Of a stretch of DNA of 32,000 nucleotides, positions 2,354 through 24,797 are shown piece after piece. The first letter of the stretch is position 1, and each line of letters begins with the position of its first letter. The translations under genes and the position numbers were made by a program. The stretch lies in the NCBI RefSeq assembly GCF_026805325.1, contig NZ_JAPRAT010000005.1, positions 83,716 to 115,715 of the forward strand. Reading direction: 5' to 3'. This DNA comes from Natronobacillus azotifigens. GTDB lineage: Bacteria; Bacillota; Bacilli; Bacillales; Amphibacillaceae. Below the pieces are notes generated by a model. That model saw only the letters and a list, made by a program, of their open reading frames with translations. It did not search any database and was not told the origin of the DNA.

Positions 2354-3394
2354 TTAATCCATGGATGAACGAGAAGCAATATTAGGGTGAGATTTGAAAT
2401 GCTCGATATATTCCAGTGCTTTACCGGTTCCAATCGCAACACTATCAAGTGGTTGGTCTGCCACAAAGACAGGCATCTTCGTTTCCTCACTAATTACTTC
2501 GTCCAAACCTTTTAATAATGCACCACCACCGGATAGTACGATACCACGGTCCATTACATCGGCAGATAATTCTGGTGGTGTTTTTTCTAGTGTGTTCTTT
2601 ACGGCATCAATAATTGCCACAACTGTATCACGCAAAGAGTTTGCAATTTCTTCAGCAGTTACTGAAATCGTTTTTGGTAAACCAGTTAATAAATCTCTAC
2701 CACGAATGTCCATCGAACTATTTTCTTCCGGCTTGCCAGCATTACCAATATCCATCTTGATTGCCTCTGCTGAGCGTTCTCCTATCATCAGACTATATTT
2801 TTTACGGATATATTGGATAATTGCATCATCCATATCGTCACCAGCAGTTCGAATCGATTGACTAGTGACAATCCCACCCAAGGAGATAATAGCTACCTCT
2901 GTCGTACCACCGCCGATATCAACAATCATACTACCGGTTGGTTCCCAAACAGGTAATCCAGCTCCAATTGCAGCTGCAAATGGTTCCGCAATAGGGTATG
3001 CTTCTTTTGCCCCTGCTTGTTTTGTCGCATCAATTACAGCTCTCTCTTCTACCATTGTAATACCTGATGGAACACATACCATTACGTTTGGTTTCTTAGC
3101 AAGAGCAGAGCGATTTTTTTGTGCTAATCGTATATAATATTTCATCATCGATGCAGTAGTATCATAATCAGCAATAACACCATCTTTCATTGGACGAATC
3201 ACTGATATATTCCCGGGTGTTCTTCCGATCATGTTGCGCGCATCACTTCCGACTGCTTCAATATCACCAGTCGAGTTATTTCGAGCTACAACGGAAGGTT
3301 CTCTAACTACGATTCCTTTTCCTTTAATATAAACCAATGTATTTGCTGTTCCTAAATCTATTCCTAAGTCTTGTGTAAAACTAAATCTTGCCAC
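2354..3394 (-). CDS. mreB: Actin-like rod shape-determining protein MreB
   Basis: 346-aa ORF nearly colinear with B. subtilis MreB ([44 protein letters not shown]). GTG start has the RBS AGAGAGGAAG upstream. Confidence 0.97.
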
Positions 3395-3499
3395 AAAAAT
3401 CTTCCTCTCTATCTGTCAAAAGTCAATTTAATATTCTTGTTATGGTTGTAATTGTTAGCATAAAAACAATGGGTTCTTTTTATTTTAACATAACAAGAA

Positions 3500-3535
3500 G
3501 CGCCTAACACAAGAAAATTTCTTATGTTATGGCGC
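3500..3535 (-). terminator. Long imperfect hairpin between the radC stop and mreB (putative terminator or attenuator)
   Basis: GCGCCTAACACAAGAAA (3500-3516) pairs with TTCTTATGTTATGGCGC (3519-3535), about 15 bp with one bulge and one mismatch. On the minus strand it is followed by the T-rich TTCTTGTTATGTT, not a clean U-run. Confidence 0.4.
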
Positions 3536-3590
3536 CCATTATCTTTTTCGCCTATTTAATTATACGAAAAAAATCATAAAATAGATAGTG

Positions 3591-3731
3591 CTATACATAT
3601 CCTTTTTCTTTTAATGATACAAATTTGTGGTCGCCAATAACTAAATGGTCCAAAAGTTCGATGCCAATCATCTTACCACATTCACTAAGGCGCTTTGTCA
3701 CATGAATATCTTCTTGTGACGGTGATGGATC
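3591..3731 (-). CDS. radC: RadC-family JAMM protein, exon 2 (46 codons plus stop)
   Basis: The reverse complement from 3731 reads [46 protein letters not shown]. This is the missing conserved RadC C-terminus. It joins in frame to ...HNHPSG at 5538. Confidence 0.9.
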
Positions 3732-3734
3732 GTA

Positions 3735-3826
3735 GGGTAGGAATTATGCGCCTTACTTTACAACAACGGTAGGTTTCATAACTCCCCCCTCAGAACCGTA
3801 CGTACACCTTTCAATGTATACGGCTC
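3735..3826 (-). ncRNA. Group II intron catalytic domain V plus branch-point domain VI
   Basis: DV (3793-3826) reads GAGCCGTATACATTGAAAGGTGTACGTACGGTTC: 34 nt with the AGC triad, a GAAA tetraloop and the 2-nt bulge context. After a 3-nt linker, DV is followed by DVI. In DVI, GGGGGGAGTTATG (3789-3777) pairs with CATAATTCCT-A-CCC (3748-3735), leaving A3738 unpaired. Confidence 0.85.
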
Positions 3827-3841
3827 GCCAGTTAGTTCTTA

Positions 3842-4993
3842 TTAGAAAAGACTCCTTATTTCGCAACCTTTTTTTCGAAGCTTGTTAACAGTTGTTCTAC
3901 GTTTCATCGCTATTGTCTTTAATAAACTTCCTTTTGCATAATAAATCAACGTATGGAATTGACTTTTGAAATTATCTGCAAAATAATATTTCGTTTTGAA
4001 TTGATGTATTTCCTTTTGGAAAATGTTCATGATTTTTTCTTCAGAATAATTCATGCATGCTTTTCTGGGATCAATCGTCCGATCGTCGATGTTTCCATAG
4101 TTATATTTTTGTACATATTGCTTCAATTTAATATCAGGAATGTGGAATTGAAAGGATGTATTCGTTGGATTATCAGTAGATGTGGGAATTCTGAAGAAAT
4201 TACAATCGAAAAATAAGGTTGATTGATGAATATGTCGAATAGTATTATTCATCTTTAGACATAGAAAACGTGTCTTTTTACCTAGTGCCAACCTGATTTC
4301 TTGCTGTACATTTACTGCATTCTCTTTTCTCGATTTTATTCCAATTAAAAATTCTTCTTGGTAGCGAATATATTTAATTTGTTCACTGAAAGGTTCGCAC
4401 ATCATTTCTGTATCGAGTCCAAAAAAATAGATCTTTTGAAACAATCGATCAAACTCTGGGAACTCATTTCTCCATCGGGCATTACGAATGATCTGACTAA
4501 GTAACCTTATAAAGCGCTCATCAGCAACTTTTTCCCTTATCTTTTCAAGAAGAAATGCTCGTTTTTGCTTCAGTGGTACATCAATATATTCACCTTTGAT
4601 TACCCACGTGACCTCATCCCATGTTTTTTTGATTTCAATTATTTTGTGAGGAAGACTAGTTCGTTCTGTCTTCAAAGTGAACACAGGTGCATATATTTGA
4701 AGCATAACACTCATAATCACTCGCAAATATACTTTTGTCACGATCTGATATTCCTTTTCTGTTCGGTTAGTGATTTCTGAAAATTGAAAATGACCCCATC
4801 GTAATTGATTAATTACTTGGTCTATTAAACATGAAATATTATCATCGATATTCGCTTTTGTTAAAAAGATTTCCTGATAATTCTTTTTCCACAACGTTTT
4901 CTTATACAATAAGCGATAACAATCTTTTACTGGTTGATTACGAGCAGATACTTTTCTAATTTCGACTAATTGGTGAAATGGATTTTTTGCCAT
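3842..4993 (-). CDS. Group II intron-encoded protein: maturase (X domain) with a degenerate reverse-transcriptase domain and no DNA-binding/endonuclease domain
   Basis: The C-terminus FKTKYYFADNFKSQFHTLIYYAKGSLLKTIAMKRRTTVNKLRKKG matches the WxNYYxxAxN...TLAxKHKxS maturase signature. RT-like blocks are recognisable but mutated: YIRYQEEFLIG replaces YxRYADDFxIG, FPEFDRLF replaces GTPQGGxLSP, and WVIKGEYID replaces xxEGDIKxCFD. Likely start is ATG 4993 (RBS GGAAGGAG, 8-nt spacer); the ORF track extends to 5050. Confidence 0.85.
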   Translation of the reverse strand: MAKNPFHQLVEIRKVSARNQPVKDCYRLLYKKTLWKKNYQEIFLTKANIDDNISCLIDQVINQLRWGHFQFSEITNRTEKEYQIVTKVYLRVIMSVMLQIYAPVFTLKTERTSLPHKIIEIKKTWDEVTWVIKGEYIDVPLKQKRAFLLEKIREKVADERFIRLLSQIIRNARWRNEFPEFDRLFQKIYFFGLDTEMMCEPFSEQIKYIRYQEEFLIGIKSRKENAVNVQQEIRLALGKKTRFLCLKMNNTIRHIHQSTLFFDCNFFRIPTSTDNPTNTSFQFHIPDIKLKQYVQKYNYGNIDDRTIDPRKACMNYSEEKIMNIFQKEIHQFKTKYYFADNFKSQFHTLIYYAKGSLLKTIAMKRRTTVNKLRKKGCEIRSLF

Positions 4994-5537
4994 ATTCATG
5001 ACTCCTTCCACACTTTTCAGTTGATGAACCAACCTGTCTCCCTTCCCCATGCTATACGAATTACTCGCAAACGTAGAGTACTATGAAGACTCCGTTACCT
5101 TATGCAACATAGATATGGGTTGCACTTAGGTAATCCCTACCTAATCATTAATTTTAGTAGCGTGATGGTTAGGTATCCCTTTCGACGGTTATTTCGATTT
5201 GAAATTTGCCGAACAAACCTTACGATGGCAAGAATTAATTCTAGTTTAACAGTCTGACGATCTGTTGCCATTTTGTTCGCATTATCTATTAGCTATCATA
5301 AATAATGGTGGATCCAACACACATTCGTCTAGGATTCAGACAATTCAGCTTTTACCATACATCACTTGGTCTGAAGAACGGATTCGATGTTGATAGCATT
5401 ATCGTCTCTTCTCCTTTTCACATCATGCTATGTTCCTTTGACACGTTTCCGTTCAAAGTAAGATGCTGACCATAGAACATTGCAAGGAGTTCTAGATTAC
5501 TAGATAATCGCTAAAATTAACCACATTGTAGGCGCAC

Positions 5538-6086
5538 GCCAGAGGGATGATTATGCGCACAAATAATGGATGCGGCCGATCTTTTTACGGCTTCGCGAAA
5601 AACTTCGCGTGGATGGACGATTGAGGCATTGAGGCTTCCAATAAAAATAGTTTGTCTGTGAATGATTTGGTTCTTCGTATTGAGGAATAAAACCACGAAG
5701 TGCTCTTGCTTTAGTAGACGCATTTCTTCCATTACGAAATCAGCCCCGTCTTCTGGGCATCGTACCACATAACGATCTTCTGATTTCAGTTGATTCATGC
5801 GTTTTCCTAGTTCAATTGCAGCTAAAATACCAACAGCTTTGGCGGCTCCAATTCCTTTTATTGCCGTAAGTTCTTCCAGTGTCGATTCGCGCAATAAATT
5901 GATTCCTTCAAAATGCATTAGCACTCGCTGTGCTAATGCTTGTACAGATTCTGTTTTTGTTCCTGTTCCTAATAAGATCGACAGCAATTCTTGATTGGAA
6001 ACATGGCTTGCTCCAAGTTCCATGAGACGTTCCCGTGGTCGATCTTGTTTTGGCATGTCCTTCATTGTCACGTGTAATCCGGTCAT
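5538..6086 (-). CDS. radC: RadC-family JAMM protein, exon 1 (183 codons)
   Basis: ATG at 6086 has GAAAGGAGG 7 nt upstream. Motifs are DRPRERL, the helix-hairpin-helix LTAIKGIGAAKAVGILAAIELGKR, HPREVFREAV, and an end at CAHNHPSG (GGC at 5538-5540). Unspliced read-through adds only VRLQCG* from the intron. Spliced product is 229 aa; B. subtilis RadC is recalled to be of similar length. Confidence 0.9.
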
Positions 6087-6383
6087 TGCATTACCTCCTT
6101 TCTCTATACTTATTTTCATTCTAGCAACAATCCGAAAAATAACAAATTACCAATCTGTGTATTTGAGTTATAAAAATGCGTTAAAAACAGAATTATTGTT
6201 ACGAGAAAAATGAAAAATTAGGTGCGTAGAAAAAGCTATTTTATCGATTCAACGCATGTTTTCTTAAAGGAAAAGACCGGGAGTTCAACAGGTCATTTTG
6301 AGAAGCAATAAGAGGTTATACGGTGACAAGCTGCTGATTGTCACATCACGCTATAGCGTGACTCATTACAACAAGAAACAAGT

Positions 6384-6525: not shown

Positions 6526-7377
6526 CTATAGCTGATCATACAAATACCACCAAACAAGTAATTCGGAATCGAGAATATCATTGTTGGGCTGTTTTAAAAA
6601 TTGTTCGACTCTCTCTTTAAGTTCCATTACAGAATCAGGCATATTATCTGGTGCCGCTAAGACCCAATCGTTCCAATTGGAATGCATTTGATCTGTCATT
6701 CCTGTAAGCGATGCATTCCATAAATCAGTGAATAACCCTAACCAATCTGCTACTGGTTGCTCTAAACTTGCCACATCACTTTCATTATTCCATGACCGCA
6801 CATATAAATCTAAGCCAGCGCTTTCCATCACTTCTGCCATTTGTTTTGCATCTACTTCAGAGCCATAAGCGCCGGTAAAAAGACGAATGTCTTCTTCCGT
6901 TTCCCATAAAATTGCTTGAAAACCAGCTTGATGAATCGTGTCTTGTGAGATCTTTGCTTGCTCCAAAGAAGAAAACACACCTGCTTGAATCACATATGCT
7001 TGAAGCGATGCTAATTCTAACTGATTACTGCCCGTTGTTTCCGTTGTATTACGATCACCTTCTTCTTGTTCTCTAGAAACTGGCTGTGACATTGTTGGTT
7101 CTTCCTCATTTACGACAAACATATTCAAAATGAATATACCCAGCCCAACACCAATGACAATTGCAGACAAGGCCGTAATAATAAAACTTTTTATGGAAGA
7201 TGAGTGATTTCCCCCGAACTTTTTTCCACTTTTTTTGAGCTTACTTGTTTTCACACTCTTATATTGAAGTTCTGGTATGTCATCCAGACTAGCAGCTTCT
7301 TCTTGATAACTAGAAAATAGATAATCTTCAGTCGGATCATTTGATAGTTTTACGGTGATTTTCTTTTTGTCCTCCAT
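6526..7377 (-). CDS. Membrane-anchored SPOR-domain protein (occupies the spoIIB position)
   Basis: Likely start is ATG 7377 (GGAGG 8 nt upstream); the ORF track extends to 7464. It has one TM segment (SFIITALSAIVIGVGLGIFILNMF). The SPOR-like block is YVIQAGVFSSLEQAKISQDTIHQAGFQAILWETEEDIRLFTGAYGSEVDAKQMAEVMESAGLDLYV. Confidence 0.65.
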   Translation of the reverse strand: MEDKKKITVKLSNDPTEDYLFSSYQEEAASLDDIPELQYKSVKTSKLKKSGKKFGGNHSSSIKSFIITALSAIVIGVGLGIFILNMFVVNEEEPTMSQPVSREQEEGDRNTTETTGSNQLELASLQAYVIQAGVFSSLEQAKISQDTIHQAGFQAILWETEEDIRLFTGAYGSEVDAKQMAEVMESAGLDLYVRSWNNESDVASLEQPVADWLGLFTDLWNASLTGMTDQMHSNWNDWVLAAPDNMPDSVMELKERVEQFLKQPNNDILDSELLVWWYLYDQL

Positions 7378-7580
7378 ATTTAATGCCTCCATTATTTCGG
7401 TTATAACAAACACTCTATCATGAAGTTCATAAAAACAACGTAGACATTTGTCAAATGCAAACAAACAAATTCTTTGCTAATTTTGCAAAAAATTTAGAAG
7501 AATCGATTTACAGAACTATTCTTCAAATAAAGCTAGATTTATTGCCCCTTATCATAAATTGTTATAATACTCTTCACTAG

Positions 7581-7624: not shown

Positions 7625-8275
7625 TTATTGAAACGGATTTGATCTTTCTTCTGGACTAACAAATGAACCATCCAATTCATAATTTGGAAATTGATTTGCA
7701 AACTCATTCATATAATACGTACTTATATTAATGTCGAGCATAATAGATGTACCAGAATCTGTTATAGATGGTTCGGAAAAAGAAAAAGATGATACTGTTG
7801 TTATACGGTTTAAATTTTCTAATTCCTCTAAAAACGAGTAAAGTTGCTCATAAGAGTCCGCTTCAACAGATAATGTAGCATCTATTTGTTGTAAAGCAGA
7901 TGAATTGTCTTCAGCATCCTCATCGTTCTCTGTTAAGCTATACTCTAATTCAGATCTACTAAAATTAAAACTATCTATATTTGTCTCCGACCTCTCTTGA
8001 ATTTCTTCCAGCTCCACTAGCCAATATTCCATAAATGGTTTAGGAGGAATCCTTTCGAGATATTCAAGTAACTGTCCATCATCAACATCAGCAGAAGCTT
8101 TGTTCTCTTGCAACACTGCTAAATATTCTTCTTCATTCACTAATTGATCATTGGCAGTAGAAAGATCCCTACTCGTGGGAAGAAGGTAAAAGAAATAAAA
8201 TATCCCTAACCCAAGCAAAGTTATCACTGCAAAAACAATTAACAACTGATTGATCAATTTCCCGTTAAGATTCAT
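7625..8275 (-). CDS. pilO: Type IV pilus alignment-complex protein, PilO-like
   Basis: It has an N-terminal TM segment (LLIVFAVITLLGLGIFYFFYLL) followed by a coiled-coil/periplasmic domain, and is the last gene of the pilMNO trio. ATG 8275 has GAAGGTG 6 nt upstream; the alternative start is GTG 8284. It overlaps the pilN stop. Confidence 0.65.
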   Translation of the reverse strand: MNLNGKLINQLLIVFAVITLLGLGIFYFFYLLPTSRDLSTANDQLVNEEEYLAVLQENKASADVDDGQLLEYLERIPPKPFMEYWLVELEEIQERSETNIDSFNFSRSELEYSLTENDEDAEDNSSALQQIDATLSVEADSYEQLYSFLEELENLNRITTVSSFSFSEPSITDSGTSIMLDINISTYYMNEFANQFPNYELDGSFVSPEERSNPFQ

Positions 8276-8837
8276 CAGATTCACCTTCTAACTCTTCACT
8301 GTCATTATCTTCCGTTTGCTTATCTTGAGATATGTTTAAACGAATTGAAAATGATGCTACATATTCATTATCTCCTTGTTGAATCGTATTAACGACAATA
8401 TTTGTAACCATAGGTGACTGATCAAGATTGTGCAAGTAACTAGAAACATCTCTTTCTTCAGAAAATCTTGCAGTTAATTCAACCTCAGCATCATCAGAAT
8501 AATAATAATTCACAAAAGAACCATCGGATGGTAATTGATGCACAAGGGAATCCAAAACCTTAGTTGATGATAACTGTTGTGCTTCGAGCCACGTAACTGT
8601 TTCACCTAAAAGTTGATCTGTTCTATCTGTTGACTGCTCTTGCATTGCAAGGGTCTGCATCTCGACAACCGTTTCAATACTTTTTTCCACTCTCTCGATT
8701 TCTCGATTAAGTGAGTTATAGTAGATAACTCCTGATAAAAATAACAGTAGCCCGACAACAATACTTGTTCCAGCAATACTCAGGATTAGATAGTTTTTTT
8801 TCGGTTTCTCGGGTAGTAAGTTTATTTCAACAAGCAT
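8265..8837 (-). CDS. pilN: Type IV pilus protein PilN-like (fimbrial assembly, bitopic)
   Basis: The N-terminus MLVEINLLPEKPKK (the INLLP motif typical of PilN) is followed by a TM segment. RBS is AAGAGGTG. It starts 4 nt after the pilM stop. Confidence 0.75.
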   Translation of the reverse strand: MLVEINLLPEKPKKNYLILSIAGTSIVVGLLLFLSGVIYYNSLNREIERVEKSIETVVEMQTLAMQEQSTDRTDQLLGETVTWLEAQQLSSTKVLDSLVHQLPSDGSFVNYYYSDDAEVELTARFSEERDVSSYLHNLDQSPMVTNIVVNTIQQGDNEYVASFSIRLNISQDKQTEDNDSEELEGESDES

Positions 8838-8840
8838 GGA

Positions 8841-9806
8841 CTACACCTCTTTTAAACATAGGCTTAAAGGTAGATGAAAATGTTTATGAATACCTATATT
8901 CATCTCATACAAAGCCAGTATGTTTACATCTCTTTGCATTAATTGTTTCTTAATATCCGGGAGCAAGGGATGGTCTCCTGTCAAAAGGATTGTCGTGATG
9001 TCTTTTTCCCCTTTATTTAATGAATATTTATAAAAATTTGAAACACGATCTATTTCTGCTAGTTGCTCATTAATTCTTGTTTCCATTTGGGCTAAATCCT
9101 TACAATTTATTGAAGCGACGTTTTCCTCTGTATGAATAATCCATTCATCATCTATTAAAGGATAAGGTTGTTCTCTCATAAATATTGGTATATTATCGTG
9201 AAAAATACTTAAATTGATCGATGATAAATTATATTCAATTAAAAGATAATGTTCATCTTTTTCTGTTTCTTGGATCCTAGAAAACAATCGAAAAAACGAG
9301 ATGGCTGAAACATCTGCTGCAACAGGTTTTAGTTTGAATTGTTCGAATTTTTTTTCATATTGCTTCACTAGCTTTTCTGGAATAGCAAAAAAAAGAATTT
9401 CTTTTTCCTTTTCACTAGCCTTGGGAAGAATGTGAAAATCAAAATAAGGATCTTCAAATGGAAGATGAATACTTGCCCCAATCTCGAAATTCAAGTAACC
9501 TCTAATTTCTTCATTTTCAAGCTCATCTGGTATAGATAATTTACGAAAAAACAAAAATACATCTGGAACAAGAAACATAACCTGTTTATTTTTCAAATTC
9601 CATTTTCCGACCGATTCCTGAAATATTTGATTGAATTTTACCTCATCTACAATAGTTCCTTTTTCTACAACACCACTAGGTAAAATTGTCTCACCAAAAC
9701 TTTCTACATCTTGGTAACTTGGCCCTTTAGTTGTCACATACCTAATTACATGATCTTTTATCTGAATTGCAGTTGAAGCATTGTTCTTAAGATTTATTGA
9801 AAACAC
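8841..9806 (-). CDS. pilM: Type IV pilus assembly ATPase-fold protein PilM (actin-like)
   Basis: A protein of about 320 aa upstream of pilN in the pil operon. GTG 9806 is preceded by GGAAGGTAGGGGA. The ORF-track start at 9851 is a TTG with no SD and overlaps pilD. The call rests on size and position more than on motifs. Confidence 0.6.
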   Translation of the reverse strand: MFSINLKNNASTAIQIKDHVIRYVTTKGPSYQDVESFGETILPSGVVEKGTIVDEVKFNQIFQESVGKWNLKNKQVMFLVPDVFLFFRKLSIPDELENEEIRGYLNFEIGASIHLPFEDPYFDFHILPKASEKEKEILFFAIPEKLVKQYEKKFEQFKLKPVAADVSAISFFRLFSRIQETEKDEHYLLIEYNLSSINLSIFHDNIPIFMREQPYPLIDDEWIIHTEENVASINCKDLAQMETRINEQLAEIDRVSNFYKYSLNKGEKDITTILLTGDHPLLPDIKKQLMQRDVNILALYEMNIGIHKHFHLPLSLCLKEV

Positions 9807-9825
9807 ACTTTCCCCTACCTTCCAC

Positions 9826-10578
9826 TTAAAATAAACTAAAATACCATTCAATAATGGAACTGTGGAAAAAATAACTGAATAATGCAGCTACAGAAATAAA
9901 TGGTCCAAAGGGAATAGGATTTCCTCGCTTCGTCTTCCCACTAACCATTCCTATTAAACCAACTATTGCACCAACCAAGCTAGCAAAAAATAACGTTAAG
10001 AGAACACCAGTTGTTCCTAATACGATTCCTAACACTCCGAATAATTTTATATCTCCACCACCCATACCACCTTTCGAGACAATTGCCAAGAGCAATAGTA
10101 ACGTAAAACCAACCATAGCTCCTAAAATACTGTCCCACCATGGTGTTAGTGGAGAGAAGATACGTAAACTGATAAAAATTACGAGAAAAAAAATAAGTAC
10201 TGCATCTGGAATAAGCATGGTCCTAAAATCAGATATTGTAATGATTATAAGTAAAGAAACTAAGGATAACGCAACAAATAATTCTACTGACCAACCAATA
10301 GCTAGAGCAGATAGAACAAAAAGAATGGCTGTTAAACATTCAAAAAATAAGTAAGTTGGAGATATTTTTTGTTTGCAATTTCGACACTGTCCTTTTTGAG
10401 ATAAAAAAGAAAGGACAGGAATTAATTCCGTCCATCTTAGTATGTGCTTACAGTTCGGACAATGCGAACGTGGCTTAACGATCGATTCTCCGACTGGCAC
10501 TCGCATTCCAACAACATTATAAAAGGAGCCTAAAATGGCACCTAATACGAATATGTACGCATATAAAAACAGTTCCAT
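9826..10578 (-). CDS. pilD: Prepilin peptidase / N-methyltransferase (PilD/ComC family)
   Basis: It has the paired Cys motifs CPNCKH...CRNCKQ, the GMGGGDIKL aspartyl-protease active-site block, and is polytopic. RBS is AGGAGGG. It occupies the comC position next to folC in the B. subtilis template. Confidence 0.9.
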   Translation of the reverse strand: MELFLYAYIFVLGAILGSFYNVVGMRVPVGESIVKPRSHCPNCKHILRWTELIPVLSFLSQKGQCRNCKQKISPTYLFFECLTAILFVLSALAIGWSVELFVALSLVSLLIIITISDFRTMLIPDAVLIFFLVIFISLRIFSPLTPWWDSILGAMVGFTLLLLLAIVSKGGMGGGDIKLFGVLGIVLGTTGVLLTLFFASLVGAIVGLIGMVSGKTKRGNPIPFGPFISVAALFSYFFHSSIIEWYFSLF

Positions 10579-10617
10579 TTTAGACCCTCCTATTTATAAG
10601 GTGTATACTTCCACTTA

Positions 10618-11040
10618 CTATCTCACGCTCTCTCGATCTAAATTTCGTGACAATTCGTCGTCAATTATAACATTCCCGCTATCATCTTCTAGTGTAACTC
10701 TGTATTCAATATCTGAACCGCTATTTGTAATCGTGACTCTACTATTCGTTAAATGATAACTTTCTCCATTTTCCGGATGATCTACAGGCTCAATGTAATT
10801 TCCATCTAAAAGTGTGTCTAAAGTTACATAAGCTGGTGTATCTGAAGTAGATGTGATGTAAAGTCTTGTTGAATTCACCATTTGTTGTGCATTACCAACG
10901 TGTGCATCTTTCCTTGCATTACCAATTAATCCTCCTACACTTGGGATAGCGATTGCTGCAATAATCCCCAAGATAACTACAACAACAAGTAACTCAATTA
11001 ATGTTAAACCTTTCTGATTCTTTACCATTTTTTTAAACAT
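10618..11040 (-). CDS. pilA: Major type IV pilin (class III signal peptide)
   Basis: ATG 11040 is preceded by AAAGGAGAGG. The leader MFKKMVKNQKG|LTLIELLVVVVILGIIAAIAIP has a Gly(-1), Glu(+5) and a hydrophobic alpha1-N helix. It is 140 aa with no Cys pair. The ORF track extends upstream to 11109 without an RBS. Confidence 0.85.
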   Translation of the reverse strand: MFKKMVKNQKGLTLIELLVVVVILGIIAAIAIPSVGGLIGNARKDAHVGNAQQMVNSTRLYITSTSDTPAYVTLDTLLDGNYIEPVDHPENGESYHLTNSRVTITNSGSDIEYRVTLEDDSGNVIIDDELSRNLDRESVR

Positions 11041-11157
11041 GTGTACCTCTCCTTTGAAATATTTTTTATATTTAAAAGTAGGTTGCACTACTAGCTCGAC
11101 ATGATCCAAGTGCCCAGATAAAGATCATGCTTCATCGCTCCTAAAATACCCATCATT

Positions 11158-12372
11158 CTAAATTTCATTATAAATTTGAAACATTGGTACAATCAGTGAT
11201 ATAACGATAACCCCTACAATCACTGCCAAAACAACGATTAAGATGGGCTCGATTAAAGACTTTAGACGATCTGTTGCATATTCTACTTCTTTTTCATAAA
11301 AATTAGCAATTTTCCCTAACATCGCATCCAAGGAACCTGTCGCCTCTCCAATCGAAATCATTTGAACCACTAATGGAGGGAAGACCCAACTATCTTGCAA
11401 TGGTTCTGTTAATTGTCTACCCTCTTGCAGTGCAGTACGAGAACTTGCTACCGTTTGACTGATTACTTCATTGTCGATAACTTTTTCAGCGATTTTTAAT
11501 GACTGCAAAATAGGAACTGAGCTAGATAGTAGTGAGCTCAAAGTCCTCGTCATCCTGGCTATCGCAGATTTTTGTAATAATACACCGAAAATAGGGATTT
11601 TCAGAACAAAAAAATCAAGATAATATTTTGTTTCTGGTTTTCTTTTAAGTAAGATAATTGCAATAACAATTGAAAGAAAGAAAAGAATGATTAACCACCA
11701 ATAACCTCCTACAAAATCACTTGCGCCCAGCACAAACCTCGTAATAGCAGGTAATTCTCCTCCAACATCCGTTAGCATGGAGGCAAACATCGGAACAACC
11801 GAGGTAAGTAGAAAGATAACTACTGCGATTGCGACAAAAGCAATCACAATAGGATAAGCTAGAGCTGATTTAATCTTTTGTTTTGTCTCATGTTCTTTTT
11901 CAAACTGAACAGCCAATTGATCTAGCGCTTCTTCCAAACCACCACTAGCCTCGCCTGATCGAACCATGTTAATAAAAATAGGAGGAAATATTTTCTTATG
12001 CTTAGCCGCGGCATCAGAGAAAGCACTTCCGGATAAAAGTTCTTCTTCAATACTTTCTAGTGCTCTCATTAATGGTTTGCTACTTGTCTGTTTTGACAAG
12101 ATGTTCGTAGCGTCTACAATGGTCACACCTGACTCCAACAATGTAGAGAATTGTCTTAAGAAAATAACGAAATGTTCCAATTTTACAGGATTTCCAATAA
12201 CGATTTCTTGATTTAAAAAAGATGTCTCTACCTCTTCTAATTGAGCCATTGCTATTCCTTGCTCACGAAGTTTTTCTATTACATGTTTCTTTGACTTCCC
12301 TGTAACGTCGCCTTCTTTTTTCACACCTTGTGCCGTGCGTCCTCGATACTTGTATTGCGGCAAAAAAATCAC
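11158..12372 (-). CDS. pilC: Type IV pilus platform protein PilC (GspF family)
   Basis: 404 aa with a duplicated GspF-type domain and three TM segments. The GTG start overlaps the pilT stop (GTGA); a TTG at 12363 is an alternative start. Confidence 0.9.
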   Translation of the reverse strand: MIFLPQYKYRGRTAQGVKKEGDVTGKSKKHVIEKLREQGIAMAQLEEVETSFLNQEIVIGNPVKLEHFVIFLRQFSTLLESGVTIVDATNILSKQTSSKPLMRALESIEEELLSGSAFSDAAAKHKKIFPPIFINMVRSGEASGGLEEALDQLAVQFEKEHETKQKIKSALAYPIVIAFVAIAVVIFLLTSVVPMFASMLTDVGGELPAITRFVLGASDFVGGYWWLIILFFLSIVIAIILLKRKPETKYYLDFFVLKIPIFGVLLQKSAIARMTRTLSSLLSSSVPILQSLKIAEKVIDNEVISQTVASSRTALQEGRQLTEPLQDSWVFPPLVVQMISIGEATGSLDAMLGKIANFYEKEVEYATDRLKSLIEPILIVVLAVIVGVIVISLIVPMFQIYNEI

Positions 12373-24494: not shown

Positions 24495-24797
24495 TATAAA
24501 AAACCCTATTCATCCTAATAGAAAGGACGAAAAGGGTTATATTCCGTGGTACCACCTTTGTTTATAGCTGAACCCTTCCTACCAAAAGGTTCATGCTATA
24601 CACTTGTTAGATTTTAACGGTTTCTAACCGGCTTCCCCTACTGAACCTAATTATAAATACTCACTAGGCGTTCAAAGAAACTGCTTCCGAGGCTACCTTC
24701 CAAATCAATTTAACCTAGAAAATCTTTCAGCATATGATTTTCCTCTCTTAAGGTTTTGGGTTTGTACTCTTCCTCATCATTGCATTTCACATTGTAT
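24495..24797 (-). promoter_or_regulatory. T-box riboswitch leader of valS (valine specifier)
   Basis: Minus-strand elements: GA/AGTA motif TGATGAGGAAGAGTA, AGAGA box, candidate specifier GUA (24694-24696) within GGAAGGUAGCC, F-box-like CCGTTA, and the T-box sequence AAAGGTGGTACCACGGA (24543-24560). The terminator AACCCTTTTCGTCC...GGATGAATAGGGTT plus TTTTTTAT lies at 24496-24538. Confidence 0.85.

Follow-up and report, generated by a model that had tools for sequence, protein, structure and literature searches.

A group IIA intron encoding a degenerate, maturase-like protein within radC of Natronobacillus azotifigens

The window analyzed here is a stretch of 32,000 nucleotides (nt) from contig NZ_JAPRAT010000005.1 of Natronobacillus azotifigens, and all positions refer to it unless another locus is named. 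On the minus strand of the window, radC is split into exon 1 (6086-5538) and exon 2 (3731-3591) by an interval (5537-3732) with the characteristics of a group II intron. The elements of the split gene are as follows.

5538..6086, minus strand: radC exon 1, codons 1-183, ending ...CAHNHPSG (tblastn 100% identity over residues 1-183)
3732..5537, minus strand: group II intron, 1806 nt, 5' GUGCG ... 3' AC, assigned to subclass IIA / ML lineage
3591..3731, minus strand: radC exon 2, 46 codons ending KEKGYV plus the stop codon

The lengths of exon 1 and exon 2 are both divisible by 3. Exon 1 begins at the ATG at 6086, 7 nt past an AAGGAGG Shine-Dalgarno sequence, and a longer version of its open reading frame (ORF) starts at 6119. 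Read straight through, this ORF (5517-6119/6086, minus strand) encodes the RadC N-terminus through ...SAASIICAHNHPSG, followed by VRLQCG and a stop at 5517. A first reading of the DNA made without database searches (the sequence-only reading) had stated that the frame loses its sense after CAHNHPSG and resumes at 3731 in the same frame, and both statements agree with the results obtained here. Joining the exons (6086-5538 and 3731-3591) yields a RadC of 229 amino acids (aa) that matches the Pfam RadC family (PF04002) over profile positions 2-120 of 121 (E 5e-49), with UPF0758_N also matched. The joined product aligns without gaps over 229/229 residues, at 90% identity, with the intron-less RadC of Paraliobacillus quinghaiensis. 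This homolog contains a contiguous HNHPSGDPSPS, as the sequence-only reading had expected of intron-less alleles, and the alignment across this motif confirms the proposed homology of 3591-3731 to the RadC C-terminus. Among the matches listed there are more than 100 additional intron-less RadC homologs, most of which are also 229 aa in length. No second radC and no second reverse transcriptase (RT) were found within the 32-kb window.

The NCBI record for the exon 1 read-through ORF (to 5517) is a 189-aa "DNA repair protein RadC" (WP_268779170.1) ending VRLQCG, and neither the protein encoded by the intron nor exon 2 is present as a product in the protein collection. This truncated RadC and MreB both find exact counterparts in N. 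azotifigens, which rules out O. iheyensis as the source of the window. The intron-encoded protein (IEP) is apparently unannotated, because it is missing from a collection of 15 billion protein sequences. The public annotation of this locus is faulty, with radC recorded as a truncated protein. Because the intron is sense-oriented and splits radC in phase between the HxH and SxxD elements of the JAMM motif, full-length RadC would need splicing, and the true radC product is likely the 229-aa protein that depends on this RNA processing step.

The ends of the intron are well defined. The 5' terminus reads GUGCG (5537-5533) and the 3' terminus AC (3733-3732), and 57 related loci described below have the same termini. 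The Rfam model RF00029, which covers domains V and VI, matches 3732-3828 with 64.2 bits (gathering score 40; E 1e-10) over the full model (1-77), and the match stops exactly at the 3' splice site predicted from the exon junction, at 3732. The hallmarks listed in the sequence-only reading (GUGCG, a 34-nt domain V, a bulged A 7 nt from the 3' end, and AC) are borne out by this match. Domains I-III were delineated from an RNAalifold consensus of 51 homologous introns that was projected onto the window, giving the following arrangement.

5136..5537, minus strand: domain I, intron nt 1-402 (RNAalifold consensus projected onto the window)
5095..5133, minus strand: domain II, intron nt 405-443 (RNAalifold consensus)
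5036..5090, minus strand: domain III, intron nt 448-502 (RNAalifold consensus)
3827..5035, minus strand: domain IV, the interval between domains III and V, which carries the ORF
3793..3826, minus strand: domain V, 34 nt, with the AGC catalytic triad (RF00029 alignment)
3734..3790, minus strand: domain VI, with a bulged branch-point A at 3738, 7 nt from the 3' end (RF00029 alignment)

The consensus for domains I-III comprises 125 pairs, with compensatory double changes at 73 of these, and each helix is at least 96% canonical across the 51 homologs. Support for these domains was taken from the family alignment because the curated Rfam D1-D4 models, proposed earlier as a test of the intron, gave nothing useful. 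A permissive E-value scan of 3500-5700 with these models produced no meaningful match, only RF00029 and noise, the latter made up of snoRNA models and a plastid clpP D1 model that reached 25.8 bits where its gathering score is 140. This miss is put down to the lack of a curated model that fits the family and is not counted against the intron.

Elements for exon recognition were identified in the intron (exon-binding sites, EBS) and at the end of exon 1 (intron-binding sites, IBS).

5538..5543, minus strand: IBS1, UCUGGC, the last 6 nt of exon 1
5545..5549, minus strand: IBS2, CAUCC, exon positions -12 to -8, of which 4/5 bases pair with EBS2 here
5311..5317, minus strand: EBS2 loop, UUGGAUC, intron nt 221-227, in which GGAU (5312-5315) pairs with AUCC of IBS2 (5545-5548)
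5253..5259, minus strand: delta (C5259) and EBS1 (GUCAGA, 5253-5258), in the 9-nt terminal loop of the stem formed by nt 272-276/286-290

The EBS1 candidate named in the sequence-only reading (GUCAGA, 5253-5258) held up, as it sits in a terminal loop, makes 6/6 pairs with IBS1 UCUGGC, and, across related genomes, covaries with the synonymous variants of the exon. A second pairing with the end of exon 1 had also been anticipated, and the loop at 5311-5317 provides it. The family consensus pairs EBS2 GGGUG with IBS2 CAYCC, forming 5/5 pairs in most relatives, and an A at the third EBS2 position is restricted to loci with CAT in the exon. The loop at nt 221-227 is the top-scoring EBS2 candidate of the family and pairs in 81% of sequences. 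Two alternative EBS2 candidates, GCAUGAUGUG (near intron nt 125-135) and GUUGGA (nt 220), were beaten by this loop. Finally, delta C5259, the base just 5' of EBS1, pairs with G3731, the first base of exon 2. This delta-delta' pair is found in 53/53 loci, taking the form U-A in the three loci with an A at the start of exon 2 and in no others. The delta-delta' arrangement, without a separate EBS3, indicates a IIA-type intron, and the IIA/ML assignment is based on this pairing together with the LtrA-lineage profile of the IEP and the presence of Pfam AI2M-like_HNH in full-length relatives at the same site. The RF00029 match, the joined product, the EBS/IBS pairings and the covariation all agree with the earlier claim of an in-phase, sense-oriented group II intron within the JAMM motif of radC, and 3732-5537 (minus strand) is read as a group IIA intron of the ML lineage that is structurally intact and lies in the chromosomal radC of N. 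azotifigens.

Domain IV of the intron contains a single annotated feature.

3842..4993, minus strand: IEP, 383 aa from MAKNPF (385 aa from the ATG at 4999), a degenerate LtrA-like RT/maturase

The start at ATG 4993 has GGAGG 8 nt before it, and homologs begin M(NM)AKNPF. A 402-aa version starting at 5050 was rejected, as it would start inside domain III and is unsupported by homologs. A Pfam scan of the IEP revealed no RVT_1 domain. The loss of RT motifs was mapped by alignment to a full-length relative at the same radC site (locus L009), whose 627-aa protein contains RVT_1, Intron_maturas2 and AI2M-like_HNH. Relative to the L009 protein, the window IEP has deletions of PKANGKKRPL (RT1/2), SHGF (RT2a), TYHKTYSGTPQ (RT4) and the ~68-aa 4a insertion, and the whole DNA-binding (D) and endonuclease (En) region (~115 aa) is absent. 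Furthermore, YADD is replaced by YQEE and the RT3 motif GDIKGFFD by GEYIDVPL, with the RT3 aspartate changed to glutamate. The best-retained parts are RT0 and the thumb (domain X). In LtrA, RT0 and the thumb contact its own intron. A profile of the IEP and its eight database homologs matches LtrA in the PDB from RT0 to the thumb (E 1.4e-63). An AlphaFold2 (AF2) model of the IEP has a predicted local distance difference test score (pLDDT) of 84.5 and a pTM of 0.73, with pLDDT 90-94 in the thumb region, and the best PDB match to this model is LtrA in its ribonucleoprotein (8h2h_D, TMq 0.69), followed by other group II RTs.

These results divide the earlier description of the intron as "complete", which stands for the ribozyme and fails for the domain IV ORF, where RVT_1 is not detected, RT motifs are lost and D/En are absent. 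The IEP can be read as a descendant of an LtrA-type reverse transcriptase/maturase/endonuclease whose polymerase active site, dNTP-binding motifs, DNA-binding domain and HNH nuclease would all have been lost. Because the RT, D and En parts are lost while the RNA-binding RT0 region and thumb are kept, the IEP is most likely a maturase-only protein acting as a splicing cofactor for its own intron. The intron is probably immobile, that is, no longer retrohoming and vertically inherited.

A search of 5.8 billion proteins yielded only eight homologs of the IEP, and all that could be located lie between radC exon 1 and mreB. A scan of one genome per species added 49 more loci, none of them from Oceanobacillus iheyensis, nearly all in Bacillaceae genera and one in a metagenome-assembled genome (MAG) of the Thermotaleaceae. 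The hosts of these loci belong to Ureibacillus, Priestia, Virgibacillus, Gracilibacillus, Mesobacillus, Halobacillus, Robertmurraya, Oceanobacillus, the Bacillus cereus group, Amphibacillus and other taxa. In 57/57 loci with recoverable flanks, the intron occupies the identical radC position (HNHPSG / GUGCGCCU...CCUAC / DP[ST]PS, with slashes marking the splice sites). Because the site is occupied in all 57 related loci examined, it can be viewed as a recurrent homing site.

Two size classes are found at this site. The full-length class (about 32/57) has introns of 2512-2538 nt and IEPs of 627-629 aa with YADD, TPQG and HNH, some of which carry frameshifts or stops. The reduced class (25/57, or 26 with the window) has introns of 1657-2370 nt and IEPs of 285-507 aa without YADD, RT4 and En. 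The replacement of YADD differs with each reduced lineage (YQEE, HQHE, YQNS, YHNH, WFNQ, YAGE, YTGS, YADI, FEDE and others), and the deletion boundaries vary between these lineages as well. Most reduced loci contain an intact ORF of 375-507 aa that has 24-37% identity to the window IEP.

The intron from the Thermotaleaceae MAG (L040; Clostridia) is full-length and almost the same as the Bacillaceae copies, lying at a Jukes-Cantor (JC) distance of about 0.05 from that of Mesobacillus stamsii. The radC exon 1 of L040 shares no more than 44% identity with the query and has ...HNHPSN at its end instead of HNHPSG, which may reflect either an inter-class horizontal transfer or a mis-binned contig.

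Two group II introns are present in radC in six related genomes (Mesobacillus stamsii, Terrihalobacillus insolitus, two species of the B. cereus group, Robertmurraya massiliosenegalensis and Bacillus badius).

L015, 483-2795: double-intron radC locus
L016, 2150-2878: double-intron radC locus
L030, 419-2869: double-intron radC locus
L036, 348-2868: double-intron radC locus
L046, 468-2868: double-intron radC locus
L052, 397-2869: double-intron radC locus

The second insertion site (...HPREV / GUGCGCCCAUAAGG...CCCUAC / [FY][FKR]EA) is 63 nt upstream of the HNHPSG site, leaving a mini-exon of 21 codons between the two introns. The upstream intron is ~2.3-2.5 kb in five of these loci and ~730 nt, apparently without an ORF, in T. 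insolitus.

Covariation of EBS1 with IBS1 is testable at the HNHPSG site because the exon Ser-Gly codons vary synonymously across species. Reduced introns contain IBS1/EBS1 combinations that include UCAGGA with UCCUGA, UCUGGU with GCCAGA or AUCAGA, AGCGGA with UCCGCU, and more. With counts that are inflated by relatedness (the reduced set holds 8 distinct IBS1 and 11 distinct EBS1 sequences), the reduced introns have 5.91/6 EBS1-IBS1 pairs, 20/22 being perfect, compared to 4.77 +/- 0.17 in shuffles, and 0/5000 shuffles reach the observed value. In contrast, the full-length introns have 4.13/6 pairs, which is indistinguishable from shuffles (4.05). Among the related loci, EBS1 is matched to its own exon only in the reduced introns. 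In full-length introns EBS1 is often complementary to a synonymous Ser-Gly allele other than that of the resident exon (e.g., EBS1 UCCUGA with IBS1 AGUGGA), and this mismatch points to homing between species or recombination in the recent past, and perhaps to splicing that is less than optimal. A 6/6 "EBS1" at about nt 295 in some full-length introns lies past the aligned EBS1 loop, 10-12 nt further downstream, and is more probably a coincidence than a true EBS1.

The history of the two classes was probed with a neighbor-joining (NJ) tree of domains I-III (about 500 nt, 200 bootstraps), in which long branches may mislead. Monophyly of the reduced introns was recovered in 0/200 bootstraps. The reduced intron of Ureibacillus xyleni grouped with the full-length introns of U. 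massiliensis and B. ndiopicus in 200/200 bootstraps, and the nearest neighbor of the reduced introns of Mesobacillus stamsii and Terrihalobacillus insolitus was always full-length. Mean ribozyme identity is 0.89 in the full-length class and 0.78 in the reduced class, although the full-length hosts are no closer to each other, and ribozyme distance correlates more strongly with host MreC distance among reduced introns (rho 0.54) than among full-length ones (rho 0.33). These patterns would be consistent with full-length introns that still move between species by homing into the conserved radC motif, while lineages that lose RT/En become resident and their ribozyme then co-adapts to the local exon. 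Degeneration is argued to have been repeated because the ribozyme tree never makes the reduced introns monophyletic. The history that we lean towards slightly is that one LtrA-type intron homes into the radC JAMM motif across the Bacillaceae and has decayed repeatedly and independently from a 2.5-kb mobile form (RT+X+D+En) to a 1.7-2.4-kb immobile, maturase-only form, with EBS1 co-adaptation thereafter; the window intron would represent one such end-state.

Selection on the host gene and on the IEP was measured against a sister copy of the locus (L001). The ratio of non-synonymous to synonymous divergence (omega) for the radC exons is 0.025 at a synonymous divergence (dS) of 0.149, so purifying selection on the host gene remains strong despite the presence of the intron, which lends indirect support to splicing. 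The adjacent mreB has no amino-acid change, and RadC and MreB are 99-100% identical compared to 93% for the IEP. The IEP has an omega of 0.33, based on 19 synonymous and 27 non-synonymous differences (binomial p 5e-4 for the synonymous excess), and is under weaker but real constraint.

Taken together, the evidence favors an immobile, splicing-only intron in radC that consists of a structurally intact ribozyme and a maturase-only protein, a reading to which we assign a probability of about 0.8. In the mechanism that would follow, radC is transcribed together with the intron, the final 12 nt of exon 1 would be bound by EBS1 and EBS2, and the first base of exon 2 by delta. The 383-aa IEP would bind the intron through RT0 and the thumb as a maturase, reverse transcription and DNA cleavage presumably being no longer possible. 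The bulged A3738 would attack the 5' splice site, leading to release of the lariat and ligation of the exons. Ligation would restore HNHPSG / DPSPS and the 229-aa RadC.

Several observations weigh against this interpretation. The Pfam Intron_maturas2 match to the IEP has an E of only 0.0024, below the gathering cut-off, and the IEP omega of 0.33 indicates relaxed constraint. The EBS2-IBS2 pairing in the window copy is only 4 bp, with a C-C mismatch at the fifth position. Additionally, three genomes with reduced introns (Gracilibacillus dipsosauri, Robertmurraya korlensis and Robertmurraya sp. P23) combine a truncated radC exon 1 with an open IEP ORF.

L005/L014, about 3354-3455: truncated exon 1 of Gracilibacillus dipsosauri, 34 codons
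L017, 2832-2993: truncated exon 1 of Robertmurraya korlensis, 54 codons
L019, about 2977-2990: truncated exon 1 of Robertmurraya sp. P23, ~13 nt, exactly IBS2 + IBS1

All three genomes keep the reduced intron, an open ORF of 413-438 aa and exon 2. In these genomes radC may be a pseudogene, and the truncations of exon 1 may be recent. Because the ORF is open where exon 1 is truncated, it is not in all cases kept together with an intact radC.

Such open ORFs would also fit an intron that self-splices in vivo independently of any protein, with the ORF kept for another role, such as that of a general maturase or an RNA-binding regulator. Degenerate IEPs of the MatK type, which are known to act on several introns (PMC4424553), lend this alternative a precedent. 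No other intron is visible in the window, however. Group IIA introns generally need a maturase at physiological Mg2+, and the best-conserved parts of the window IEP are the very parts, RT0 and the thumb, that contact their own intron in LtrA. Consequently, protein-independent splicing is considered improbable.

It is also quite improbable that the intron is a dead relic that no longer splices, which would make radC effectively a pseudogene and the open IEP frame a leftover. The truncation of exon 1 in the three genomes suggests that RadC is dispensable in some relatives, the EBS2 pairing in the window is short, and the IEP evolves fast compared to the near-identical RadC and MreB of L001. The radC exons of the window, however, have an omega of 0.025 at dS 0.15 and are both intact, with a start codon and Shine-Dalgarno sequence present, and the IEP omega, although relaxed, is significantly below 1. 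The catalytic elements of the ribozyme are likewise all intact, compensatory changes maintain its helices, and EBS1 is perfectly matched to, and co-evolves with, the local exon.

That the intron is still mobile, either because the shortened IEP retains enough polymerase function or because a full-length RT elsewhere in the genome mobilizes it in trans, is very improbable: in about 32 species this site holds full-length RT+En relatives whose EBS1 is unmatched to the local exon, which suggests ongoing horizontal homing, and the predicted IEP fold is still RT-like, but YADD and GDIKGFFD have become YQEE and GEYIDVPL, RT1/2 and RT4 are deleted, D and En are absent, the 32-kb window contains no second group II intron (Rfam scan) or RT, and the reduced-class ribozymes are more diverged (0.78 vs 0.89) and track host distance better (rho 0.54 vs 0.33) than those of the full-length class.

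The genes that surround the split radC are arranged in the order radC-mreB-mreC-mreD-minCD.

2354..3394, minus strand: mreB, the next gene downstream of radC, in the same orientation

Directly upstream of radC is an ORF for a SPOR-domain protein (6526-7464, minus strand). In several relatives (L006, L008, L009) maf separates the SPOR-domain gene from radC, but there is no maf at this place in the window. Immediately before the SPOR-domain gene and radC comes a type IV pilus cluster (ORFs 7625-12372, minus strand). A c-di-GMP-II riboswitch (RF01786, 71.6 bits) at 11068-11149 (minus strand) is located between a PilC/T2SSF gene (11158-12372) and a pilin-like gene (about 10618-11060) that encodes an N-terminal methylation motif and is followed by genes for a prepilin peptidase, PilM, PilN and PilO. 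The pilin of this cluster is apparently under cyclic di-GMP (c-di-GMP) control. A T-box leader (RF00230, 110.1 bits) is present at 24520-24789 (minus strand).

The intron in the window can be compared to several known systems. Degenerate IEPs are rare in bacteria (Zimmerly & Semper 2015, PMC4424553), and in 2015 O.i.I2, in radC of Oceanobacillus iheyensis, was described as the only bacterial example known (PMC4424553). O.i.I2 belongs to group IIA/ML and its IEP is degenerate (Simon et al. 2008, as described in PMC4424553); it is tabulated as group IIA (PMC8283771). In addition, a 2008 survey of the B. cereus group included a group II intron in a radC-family gene (PMC2504315). The sequence-only reading had presented an intron inside a core gene as unusual. 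Its sense-oriented location inside radC is confirmed, but the claim of rarity has to be softened in view of O.i.I2 (PMC4424553, PMC8283771), the radC-family case (PMC2504315) and the occupation of the site in 57 loci. By description only, the window intron resembles O.i.I2 in its radC host, Bacillaceae chromosome, IIA/ML type, loss of YADD and other RT motifs from the IEP, and open ORF, and differs from it in genus (Oceanobacillus versus Natronobacillus azotifigens). For O.i.I2 it has been reasoned that the maturase is retained because the exons encode RadC, and the same reasoning may be applied to the window intron. The window intron is a further member, from another genus, of this rare published bacterial kind. 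The literature searched, a limited set, contained no description of the family-wide pattern of radC introns; on these introns more widely it offered only the review of 2015 and the B. cereus survey of 2008.

Among active introns, Ll.LtrB of Lactococcus lactis and its protein LtrA are related to the window intron by the family profile (E 1.4e-63), by 8h2h_D as the best fold match, and by the IIA-type EBS1, EBS2 and delta. They differ in that LtrA (599 aa) is an active RT equipped with D and En, and Ll.LtrB retrohomes, whereas the window IEP has 383 aa and neither the catalytic aspartates nor RT1/2, RT4, D or En. The full-length radC introns of the Bacillaceae share the identical site (HNHPSG / DP[ST]PS) and a homologous ribozyme with the window intron, the nearest lying at a JC distance (domains I-III) of about 0.27. 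They differ in their size (2.51-2.54 kb), in their 627-629 aa IEPs with YADD, TPQG and HNH, and in an EBS1 match that is no better than chance. Similar to the window intron, the trnK intron with its protein MatK in land-plant chloroplasts and nad1 I4 with MatR are IIA introns fixed in a host gene that have RT-degenerate IEPs. The trnK/MatK system is organellar, whereas the window intron is bacterial, and MatK is unalignable upstream of motif 5, whereas RT0 is well conserved in the window IEP. Also unlike MatK, the window protein has provided no evidence of serving other introns. The window intron would work functionally like the chloroplast trnK/MatK system.

RT-dead, maturase-only group II introns have been considered almost non-existent in bacteria, with one example cited in 2015, and the window adds a second genus. 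Such introns are the bacterial counterpart of the organellar trnK/matK introns, and they bear on how retroelements become fixed, host-dependent introns, the presumed path toward spliceosomal introns. The related loci suggest that this transition has occurred many times at one site in culturable Bacillaceae, which would open it to comparative and experimental tests of the maturase dependence of splicing, the loss of mobility, EBS-IBS co-adaptation and the fitness cost of the intron. If true, the repeated decay of these introns would re-enact in bacteria, many times over, the path that led from retroelements to splicing-only introns in organelles.

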